In this document: positions 17,106 through 18,491 of the stretch, piece after piece
Layout: the number at the start of each line of letters is the position of its first letter
Position numbering within the stretch: position 1 is the stretch's first letter
Made by a program: the position numbers and the translations under genes
The notes under the pieces: generated by a model
Database searches by the model: none
What the model was told of the DNA's origin: nothing
Seen by the model: only the letters and a program-made list of their open reading frames with translations
Assembly: GCA_030690315.1 (NCBI GenBank)
Contig: JAUYGY010000054.1
Span: 4,868-68,867, forward strand
Direction of reading: 5' to 3'
DNA: 64,000 bases
Origin: Aequorivita sp.
Lineage (GTDB): Bacteria > Bacteroidota > Bacteroidia > Flavobacteriales > Flavobacteriaceae

Positions 17106-17588
17106 TTAGGAGATGGTGCCCTGTAGTGCAACATTGGTAGTAACTTGTTGAACCGTAGGTATTGTAGCGGAAATCAATATTGACTTATTGTATCCGAAAC
17201 ACCAAATATCGTGTTTATTTAAATTACCCAGATCAACAGCTACACCAGCGGAATAATTGGCTACGGATTCACAGCAAATTTGAAACAATATCAGGTTATA
17301 GCTCCAATTATTTGGAATATACTGCTCAATTATTGCCGCCAAAGCCTGTCGATTCCATACCCAAGTATCATTACCTAGCCCAGTTCCGCCCATTTCAATA
17401 TCATTCCCGTGACCGACAAAACAAAGTGCCTCGTTCATCCCTAACTGACCTACTAAATGGGTTATCATTTGTGTAGCCTGATTCTGACTTAGATTATTGG
17501 GTATAACATATACATTTCCCCAAGAAGCGGTGTTTTGATTTAAGACATATTGTATGAAGGCTTGATCTTTTGTTACTATAATTATCAT
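17106..17588 (-). CDS. Putative minimal caspase-hemoglobinase-fold (clan CD) cysteine peptidase
   Basis: Strand-ending LCFVGHG (H60-G61) and ILFQICC (C105/C106), about 45 residues apart, followed by a helix and an IWCFGY strand. Recognised by motif only. Confidence 0.55.
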   Translation of the reverse strand: MIIIVTKDQAFIQYVLNQNTASWGNVYVIPNNLSQNQATQMITHLVGQLGMNEALCFVGHGNDIEMGGTGLGNDTWVWNRQALAAIIEQYIPNNWSYNLILFQICCESVANYSAGVAVDLGNLNKHDIWCFGYNKSILISATIPTVQQVTTNVALQGTIS

Positions 17589-17831
17589 CTTGAATGTTTT
17601 TTTATTTATCCTACTCTAAACAGGCTTTTCGGATTCCGCCTAAATGCTTAATAGTATTTACATATATATATATGCAAATACTTCTATAACAAAAATTAAC
17701 TTTAATCATAGACGACTTCATATTACCATCTATAAAATTTAATTAATCTGATCTTAATGAAGCATATGCGAAAATATCTACGTAATGTTGGTATTTTGCA
17801 TATGCTATTCATTTATAAAAACAATTAAACT

Positions 17832-18491
17832 CTATGAGCTAGGGTCATAATTGTAATCCACGACGGTATATGTGTAATCGTAGGAATAGTGATTGACAGT
17901 ACCACATATCGTGTTCACAAACCATTTACTAGTTTCTGAGGAAGAGAATACATATTGAAAACTTGTTATAGGTGTGTTCAATATTGGCATAACTGAAACA
18001 AGACCAATAACAATTCCGAAATTCTCCGTTACGGTACTCTTTTTTGTCTCCGCCTGAACGTCTCCCATCTGAGTTGTAAGATAGGCCAACATCGGCTCTA
18101 CATCACCACTTAGACCTCCTAGAACAGCTGCAAAAAATTCCATGTTGATAGATACAGCTGTACCCGAACCTGCTTTTGTTTGTTGGTCAGCTGAAGTCTC
18201 CCCCATACCATCGATCGAGTTCATTGCCTTAGTCATATCAGCTTGATTTAAAAGATACAGTCCATTTACAACGTCTTGTCCACTTGTGGTTTTGACAGCA
18301 GATTTAATGATTGTAGACATTTTTAAAGCAGCCTCAAATGCTTTTGTGACATTTTGAGTAGTTTTTGCGTCCCACTCTTTTTCAAGATAGGCGAACAAGA
18401 AATCTGAACCAGGCGCATGTAACCAAGATCCTGAATCAGTAACAACTACATGATATGAAATCAGTTCTTGTTTTTTTGTTTGATTTTTCAT
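17832..18491 (-). CDS. Putative Evf/Cyt-like lipid-binding (pore-forming-type) protein
   Basis: AVSINMEFFAAVLGG helix and C-terminal PITSFQY...T-I-C196-G...Y-Y-Y..VDYNYDP beta-hairpin with a sole Cys, resembling my recollection of the Evf family; no signal peptide. Confidence 0.5.
   Translation of the reverse strand: MKNQTKKQELISYHVVVTDSGSWLHAPGSDFLFAYLEKEWDAKTTQNVTKAFEAALKMSTIIKSAVKTTSGQDVVNGLYLLNQADMTKAMNSIDGMGETSADQQTKAGSGTAVSINMEFFAAVLGGLSGDVEPMLAYLTTQMGDVQAETKKSTVTENFGIVIGLVSVMPILNTPITSFQYVFSSSETSKWFVNTICGTVNHYSYDYTYTVVDYNYDPSS

Follow-up and report, generated by a model that had tools for sequence, protein, structure and literature searches.

The alpha/beta cytolysin fold is known from the insecticidal Cyt toxins, from the fly-gut colonisation factor Evf (Erwinia virulence factor) and from a mushroom cardiotoxin. 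Evf, Cyt and volvatoxin belong to a single structural family in which a lipid pocket is conserved. In Evf, a palmitate is attached to Cys209 through a thioester and lies buried in a pocket between sheet and helices; Evf also binds lipid vesicles (PMC5780409, PMC5390079). The action of both Evf and the Cyt proteins is directed at eukaryotic hosts (PMC5390079, PMC5780409), and Evf has been named as the single known exception where S-palmitoylation in bacteria is concerned (PMC5780409). Here we analysed a stretch of 64,000 nucleotides from Aequorivita sp. (contig JAUYGY010000054.1; the whole stretch is called the window below), in which two orphan genes, A and B, lie side by side in an island rich in defence genes. 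The product of A is predicted to adopt the cytolysin fold, and the product of B is a candidate minimal protease of clan CD. The best explanation we can offer, tentatively and just short of calling it probable, is that A is a signal-induced membrane effector of the cytolysin fold and B its lineage-specific accessory protease. Our functional statements rest on fold, conservation and gene context. The literature that we searched describes neither a part in phage defence for proteins of the Cyt/Evf fold nor their pairing with a caspase-like protease.

Predicted folds of A and B

The two genes are placed in the window as follows:

17832..18491, minus strand: gene A, open reading frame (ORF) for a 219-amino-acid (aa) orphan with a predicted cytolysin (Evf/Cyt/volvatoxin) fold; codon of C196 at 17904-17906
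17106..17588, minus strand: gene B, ORF for a 160-aa candidate minimal clan-CD (caspase/CHAT-like) cysteine protease; codons of the predicted catalytic pair at 17409-17411 (His60) and 17274-17276 (Cys105)

A and B have the same orientation and are separated by a gap of 243 bp at 17589-17831. Neither protein had any match in Pfam, NCBIfam, PADLOC (PADLOC-DB 2.0) or PHROGs, and no signal peptide is evident by eye at either start (MKNQTKKQELISY in A, MIIIVTK in B); the start of B forms a core beta-strand in a region of its model with a predicted local distance difference test (pLDDT) value of 97. The initial annotation, made from the letters of the DNA, had described two co-oriented orphan genes 243 bp apart, both without signal peptides, with A as a single-cysteine protein of Cyt/Evf-like fold and B as a minimal caspase-fold protein containing H60 and C105/C106. 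In all of this it was borne out by the ORFs, by the empty family searches and by the structure models described below.

We modelled A with AlphaFold2 on an alignment of 35 homologues and obtained a structure with a pLDDT of 83.5 and a predicted TM-score (pTM) of 0.80. A Foldseek search of the PDB assigned it to the alpha/beta cytolysin fold, in which two helical layers enclose a central beta-sheet, and returned Evf (2w3y) as the best match (E 2.7e-6, probability 1.00, query TM-score (TMq) 0.52-0.54), followed by Cyt1Aa, volvatoxin A2 and Cyt2Ba. All 13 of the 13 best matches were one of these four proteins (E <= 3.6e-4, probability >= 0.99), and beyond the 13th match the E-values jumped to at least 0.03. 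The TM-scores against cytolysin-fold structures are moderate (0.32-0.54), and kinship of A to Cyt or Evf at the sequence level was found neither in Pfam and NCBIfam nor in a profile search of the PDB sequences. The gasdermin fold is absent among the top 50 Foldseek matches of A.

The A family comprises at least 127 homologue clusters with 55-83% identity from at least six phyla, all annotated as hypothetical. Its members are spread over Bacteroidota, Gamma-, Alpha- and Betaproteobacteria, Myxococcota, Actinomycetota and Verrucomicrobiota, with sources including Flavobacteriaceae, Cytophagales, Hymenobacter, Dyella, Luteibacter, Dokdonella, Paraburkholderia, Xanthobacteraceae, Corallococcus, Actinophytocola and Opitutales. 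We recovered one distant, unannotated homologue from the plasmid search, on a Burkholderia arboris megaplasmid, none from the phage collection and no viral structural relative from BFVD. C196 is the only cysteine of A; it is retained in 112 of the 113 full-length homologues, and 95 of the 113 have exactly one cysteine. Judging by its model, A represents a new, strongly conserved clade of the cytolysin fold (Evf/Cyt/volvatoxin), and we infer that it would be a lipid-binding, membrane-active protein. The nearly invariant single cysteine is probably functional and, by analogy with Evf, is possibly a site of S-acylation.

For B, the word search returned three close homologues only, and a search of the word-indexed protein collection with a profile of the B alignment returned 5 proteins only. 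An exhaustive profile search recovered 60 remote relatives among 1.84 billion representatives, and the plasmid search gave two unannotated homologues on Caballeronia megaplasmids. In the alignment of 42 B sequences His60 is invariant, and Cys56, Gly61 and Cys105 are conserved in at least 90%. The AlphaFold2 model of B (pLDDT 95.3) has a caspase-hemoglobinase fold. Its best Foldseek match is the CHAT protease of SAVED-CHAT (8tl0, E 9e-5), and further matches are caspase-11 (E 2e-3), caspases-8, -3 and -6, Tce1, a cysteine-protease effector of type VI secretion (T6SS), and the cysteine protease domain (CPD) of RtxA. The predicted catalytic pair lies in the motifs CFVGH60GN and LILFQIC105C, directly after strands E55-58 and E99-103, which is the order of clan CD, His and then Cys, each after a hydrophobic beta-strand. 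Searches of Pfam, NCBIfam and PADLOC gave no match of B to the curated families Peptidase_C14, CHAT or Peptidase_C80.

Gene partners of A and B

The initial annotation had treated A and B as a pair and had named rare co-occurrence of their homologues as the observation that would speak against it, and this is largely the situation we found. None of the 21 genome loci with A has a B-family gene within 6 kb, and A is present in one of the 18 B-family loci (L028), a close relative of the window. The A-B pair occurs in three closely related flavobacterial lineages only, namely the window, L028 and L048/L055, the last being two contigs of one sample with a 30-nt overlap, counted as one lineage. The proteins of the two other lineages are 83-86% identical to those of the window (83% for A and 86% for B in the case of L028, whose regulator is 78.5% identical), and all three keep the colinear order of regulator, convergent B and then A. 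As a conserved pair, A-B is weakly supported.

The slot directly downstream of A holds a co-oriented partner in most loci, and in two of them the partner is fused to A. The commonest partner is C, a conserved Cys/His-rich orphan of ~320 aa, present in nine loci including one fusion (L008:6821-7777, L007, L009, L015, L016, L018, L024 and L051:5807-6760; fused in L010:5734-8253) from Gamma- and Alphaproteobacteria, Actinomycetota and a low-GC Bacteroidota-like contig. It is highly conserved across phyla (E ~1e-90 between the low-GC contig and Dyella) and ends with the invariant motif FANVIGST.DP...C-x8-C...VGGH...PIC..HN. In L010, A-A-C forms a single ORF of 839 aa, and Ser replaces Cys196 in both A copies. 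Two Flavobacteriaceae (L001, L005) have an orphan of 289-302 aa in the slot instead. In L013, a metagenome-assembled genome labelled Synechococcus, a trypsin-like serine protease domain (Pfam Trypsin_2, E 8.5e-7) is fused in frame to a full A with no stop codon (L013:5134-6654); a protease-A fusion thus exists in another phylum. Tandem copies of A were identified in L022 and L023, some other homologues carry extra N- or C-terminal extensions, and A has no partner in L003, L012, L004, L044 and L049. Of the nearest relatives of the window's A, those with 83% identity are partnered by B, those with 73% by the 289-aa orphan or by nothing, and those with 68% by C, which indicates that the slot was exchanged recently.

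Neither C nor the 289-aa partner had any match in Pfam, NCBIfam or the PDB, and C had none in PADLOC, unlike the type III restriction-modification (R-M) and SIR2-HerA genes of the window. The C-terminal motif of C suggested an HNH protein or a thiol hydrolase, which found no database support. Similarly, the 289-aa partner resembled by eye an endonuclease/exonuclease/phosphatase, an idea that gained no support from Pfam, NCBIfam or the PDB, and we make no claim for it.

Regarding the B family, a co-directional orphan ends 9-40 bp before B in eight distinct loci (L027, L031, L033/L037, L034/L035, L038, L039, L043), and on a Caballeronia megaplasmid (L045) an orphan lies 180 bp upstream of the B homologue. 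In L036 and in the protein P0148, an N-terminal B domain is fused to a domain of ~380 aa. B-family genes also occur with other partners or with none, as in L026 and L029. B-type proteases thus appear generally coupled to a neighbouring protein, which by analogy would support a functional link between A and B. We examined some of the coupled proteins as possible relatives of A. The C-terminal domain of L036/P0148 aligns in register with residues 112-203 of A, including the Cys, but hhalign gives E = 0.12-0.14 and an equal or better score came from 41 of 300 column shuffles, so the similarity is not significant. Nor was there significant similarity for the partners in L027 and L035, considered as hidden A-like (Cyt-fold) proteins.

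Several B-family loci have features of their own. The B homologue of L045 follows an orphan of 249 aa and lies beside a gene resembling leucine-rich-repeat protein kinases (L045:3182-4552, 5067-6468). L052 carries tandem B genes (L052:204-776 and 921-1442), the upstream of which is degenerate, with Tyr in place of His (AYGGD vs AHGND), and may be a pseudo-protease partner. P0148 (563 aa) is encoded in an integrase/HEPN/HipA island (L053:5001-8766). The two genes after it read as peptidoglycan-hydrolase-like (an M15-like H..G.A.D motif; an amidase-like C-terminus), with a weak PHROG match only, and together with P0148 they resemble a lysis cassette.

Regulatory genes, spacer and island

The initial annotation had the coordinates of both genes right; what it omitted is a three-gene regulatory operon at 13862-16999, which travels with A in relatives. 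The operon and the box found upstream of A are:

13862..14422, plus strand: orphan of 186 aa without family match, first gene of the kinase-regulator operon
14428..16215, plus strand: TPR-containing histidine kinase (HisKA_2 and HATPase; Pfam)
16229..16999, plus strand: response regulator (REC and LytTR; Pfam), convergent with B
18617..18650, minus strand: LytTR-type box including a half-site, 126 bp upstream of the ATG of A

This operon lies beside A in five loci (the window, L028, L048/L055, L001 and L005). The LytTR regulator is syntenic with A in L001 and L005 (55-59% identity), in L028 (78.5%) and in L055, the kinase has orthologues with 53-55% identity in L001 and L005, and the 186-aa orphan shares 34-35% identity with the first operon gene (197 aa) of the same two loci. 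This orphan may contribute to the two-component system in an accessory or signal role. All five LytTR loci (window, L028, L048, L001, L005) have the box (A/G)TTCACTCATTTA upstream of A, and A loci with other regulators, including those of NarL type, lack it. In the window it consists of the 9-mer GTTCACTCA at 18621-18629, extended to the 13-mer GTTCACTCATTTA (18617-18629), which is unique in the window at 0 mismatches, and of an imperfect half-site, ATCTACTTC, at 18642-18650, 21 bp upstream. The boxes of L001 and L005 are clean direct repeats of the form 9-N12-9, the classical geometry of LytTR sites. The homology between the window and L028 stops at ~18675, just past the box, which points to a mobile unit of ~13862-18675.

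In L001 (5575-6000) and L005 (5560-5970) the direct repeat is located ~400 bp upstream of A. The region between repeat and A contains stretches conserved between the two genomes and not present in the window, and may be a long structured 5′ untranslated region (UTR) or a small gene.

Other A loci have other regulators. A directly follows an operon of a kinase and a NarL-type regulator in L021, L049 and L051, and further genes beside A encode LuxR, AraC or wHTH-STAND regulators (single loci) or an extracytoplasmic function (ECF) sigma factor. Most A loci have housekeeping or regulatory neighbours, not defence genes; the latter are exceptional, being found in the window and, as an OLD-family nuclease gene, in L020. 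Given its frequent linkage to two-component and LuxR-type regulators, A looks more like an inducible effector than like a typical defence gene with constitutive expression.

The sequences around and between the two genes contain three further elements:

17059..17097, both strands: hairpin resembling a bidirectional terminator, located between B and the convergent LytTR regulator gene (end 16999)
17589..17643, minus strand: ~55 bp just upstream of B, containing GGCGGAATCCGAAAAGCC, conserved in alignments with L028 and L055
17761..17806, minus strand: hairpin directly 3′ of the stop codon of A (dG -17.4, z = -4.1)

The strong hairpin that had been reported at 17059-17097 is indeed present, with a perfect 15-bp stem, a free energy (dG) of -19.5 kcal/mol and z = -7.1 on the plus and -5.8 on the minus strand, and none of 200 shuffles matched its stability. 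The hairpin behind A is kept in L028 with a compensatory change and again in L048. It lacks a U-tract and may be a partial terminator or an element that stabilises mRNA. A scan of 16900-19900 for consensus terminators revealed no canonical terminator, the hairpins being without U-tracts. The rest of the A-B spacer has diverged with indels across the three lineages, and only this hairpin and the ~55 bp before B are kept. The latter region is possibly a promoter, 5′ UTR or operator of B.

The island itself contains the defence genes expected from the initial annotation, identified by Pfam or PADLOC, and is delimited on one side by an integrase:

3356-4585: TIR-TPR gene
5161-9800: type III R-M genes (strong PADLOC match)
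9803-12773: SIR2-HerA genes (strong PADLOC match)
19898..21112, minus strand: tyrosine integrase at the end of the island, adjoining the tmRNA gene
21350-21745: transfer-messenger RNA (tmRNA) gene, at which the island is integrated

The source genome has a single copy of A and a single copy of B, and both are missing from all of 60 related genomes, 36 of which belong to the same genus; this marks them as acquired accessory genes. Between A and the integrase, at 19311-19568 and outside the block common to L028, we noticed a small ORF of 85 aa that resembles a lipoprotein (MKRFIFILAVVLFGC...).

Competing explanations and known systems

In the explanation that we tentatively prefer, A would be the core that stays constant in a module moved by horizontal transfer. 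In the flavobacterial form of this module, the TPR-kinase/LytTR operon would most likely switch A on via the direct-repeat box upstream of it. The slot downstream of A would hold a swappable accessory enzyme, here B as a minimal clan-CD protease with a His60/Cys105 dyad, and B would most likely act with A, processing either A or a shared target. The idea of a protease joined with a cytolysin-fold effector is kept alive by the L013 fusion, by the swappable slot and by the coupling and fusions seen in the B family. Several observations weigh against it. A and B co-occur in close relatives only, and recent shared ancestry could explain their synteny. The conserved hairpin after A and the separately conserved region before B suggest that the two genes may be transcribed independently. 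For C, neither a similarity to B nor one to any protease family was detectable, and the partners of A are not demonstrably equivalent in function. A stands alone in several genomes and so does not need a partner, and the partners of B-family genes have no detectable similarity among themselves or to A.

Some of these points would equally suit a LytTR-regulated lone cytolysin-fold protein next to a separate protease gene that happened to land in a mosaic island, which we regard as somewhat unlikely. The 243-bp spacer with its hairpin after A and its separately conserved region before B, the genomes with A alone, the B-family genes with other partners or none (L026, L029) and the restriction of the pair to lineages with 83-86% identical proteins all fit two independent neighbours. 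However, a co-oriented partner lies downstream of A in most loci and is fused to it in two, B-family genes are usually tightly coupled to their upstream gene, and the order of B and A has survived in three lineages whose spacers differ by indels. The same variability of partners is reminiscent of polymorphic and AB toxins, including the A-A-C single chain, and could point to a binary toxin in which A is the membrane-binding or delivery part and B, C or the 289-aa orphan the enzymatic cargo, which would act within a competitor or eukaryotic grazer. Inducible regulation would suit a toxin, B is similar to small effectors of clan CD that are secreted, for example Tce1 (target TM-score (TMt) 0.46), and the action of Evf and Cyt proteins on eukaryotic hosts is in line with such a role (PMC5390079, PMC5780409). 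The Tce1 relative Tce2, with which B was also compared, has 190 aa and the pair His65/Cys115 (PMC13323088). We nevertheless find this explanation unlikely, as A and B lack signal peptides, no secretion-system or immunity genes lie beside the pair, and an enzymatic nature of C and the 289-aa partner has no support from Pfam, NCBIfam or the PDB. We also know of no translocation function for the cytolysin fold.

The proximity of type III R-M, SIR2-HerA and TIR-TPR genes raises the question of abortive infection analogous to gasdermins, in which phage infection would activate B, B would cleave A and the Cyt-fold pore former would kill the cell. The caspase-like fold of B, the pore-former fold of A with its conserved cysteine, the existence of a protease-A fusion, the OLD-family nuclease gene adjoining A in L020 and the B-domain fusion protein in an integrase/HEPN/HipA island all speak in its favour. 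However, the top 50 structural matches of A include no gasdermin fold and the cysteine of A is near the C-terminus, whereas that of bacterial gasdermins is near the N-terminus. B has no sensor domain, and neither protein matches PADLOC or PHROGs. Moreover, the neighbours of A are mostly housekeeping or regulatory genes, dedicated two-component regulators are atypical of abortive-infection effectors, and the pair is confined to one narrow lineage. Altogether we consider this route quite improbable. We give a similarly low probability to the broader proposal that the partner of A (B, the fused trypsin-like protease of L013, possibly also C) arms, by proteolysis or by chemical means, a membrane disruptor of the Cyt fold that is S-acylated, as an undescribed and widely transferred system. 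Gasdermin-like logic would then have evolved independently on another fold, for regulated killing in defence or antagonism.

The A family is an unannotated clade of the predicted cytolysin fold. It is mobile, keeps a single cysteine, is linked to dedicated genes of signal transduction and is joined by a partner gene that can be swapped; A, B, C and the 186-aa protein all lie outside the curated families. Should A prove to be acylated and active on membranes, its family would add a broad new class of bacterial membrane effectors under regulatory control, and only a second example of Evf-type S-palmitoylation in bacteria. Gating of A by a protease partner would make the system a convergent analogue of gasdermin systems; if there is no such gating, a well-defined orphan family remains.

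Among the known systems, Evf (2w3y) is the best structural match of A. Both have a similar architecture, are made in the cytoplasm and contain a conserved cysteine, which in A would be able to carry lipid as it does in Evf. However, the two are only 12% identical, A is shorter (219 aa vs ~265-280), and its distribution over many phyla, its dedicated regulators and its partner genes are not described for Evf. Cyt1 and Cyt2 of Bacillus thuringiensis and volvatoxin A2 share the alpha/beta cytolysin fold with A (E 2e-5 to 4e-4, probability ~1.0), but with low TM-scores (0.32-0.39), and A has no Pfam match to the Cyt family (Bac_thur_toxin). A also differs from Cyt in having a conserved cysteine and no crystal or sporulation context. 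Since Cyt protoxins are activated by proteolytic trimming, a protease in the neighbourhood of A is plausible.

B, in turn, resembles the CHAT protease of SAVED-CHAT (8tl0), the caspases, the C80 CPD of MARTX and TcdB, and Tce1/Tce2 in its fold and in the order of His and then Cys after consecutive beta-strands. Tce2 comes close to it in size and dyad spacing (160 aa and H60/C105 in B). Unlike these clan-CD proteases, B is not a member of their sequence families, no SAVED, TPR or inositol-hexakisphosphate-binding (InsP6-binding) features were identified in it, and no T6SS genes lie nearby. As in the systems of gasdermins with caspase-like proteases, a candidate membrane effector with a conserved cysteine is encoded beside a caspase-fold protease in a defence island. 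A-B differs from them in the fold of the effector, the C-terminal position of its cysteine, the lack of sensor or repeat domains in B and the adjacency of effector and protease, which is not conserved across the A family. The class of protease linked to A varies as well, from clan CD in the case of B to trypsin-like in the fusion.

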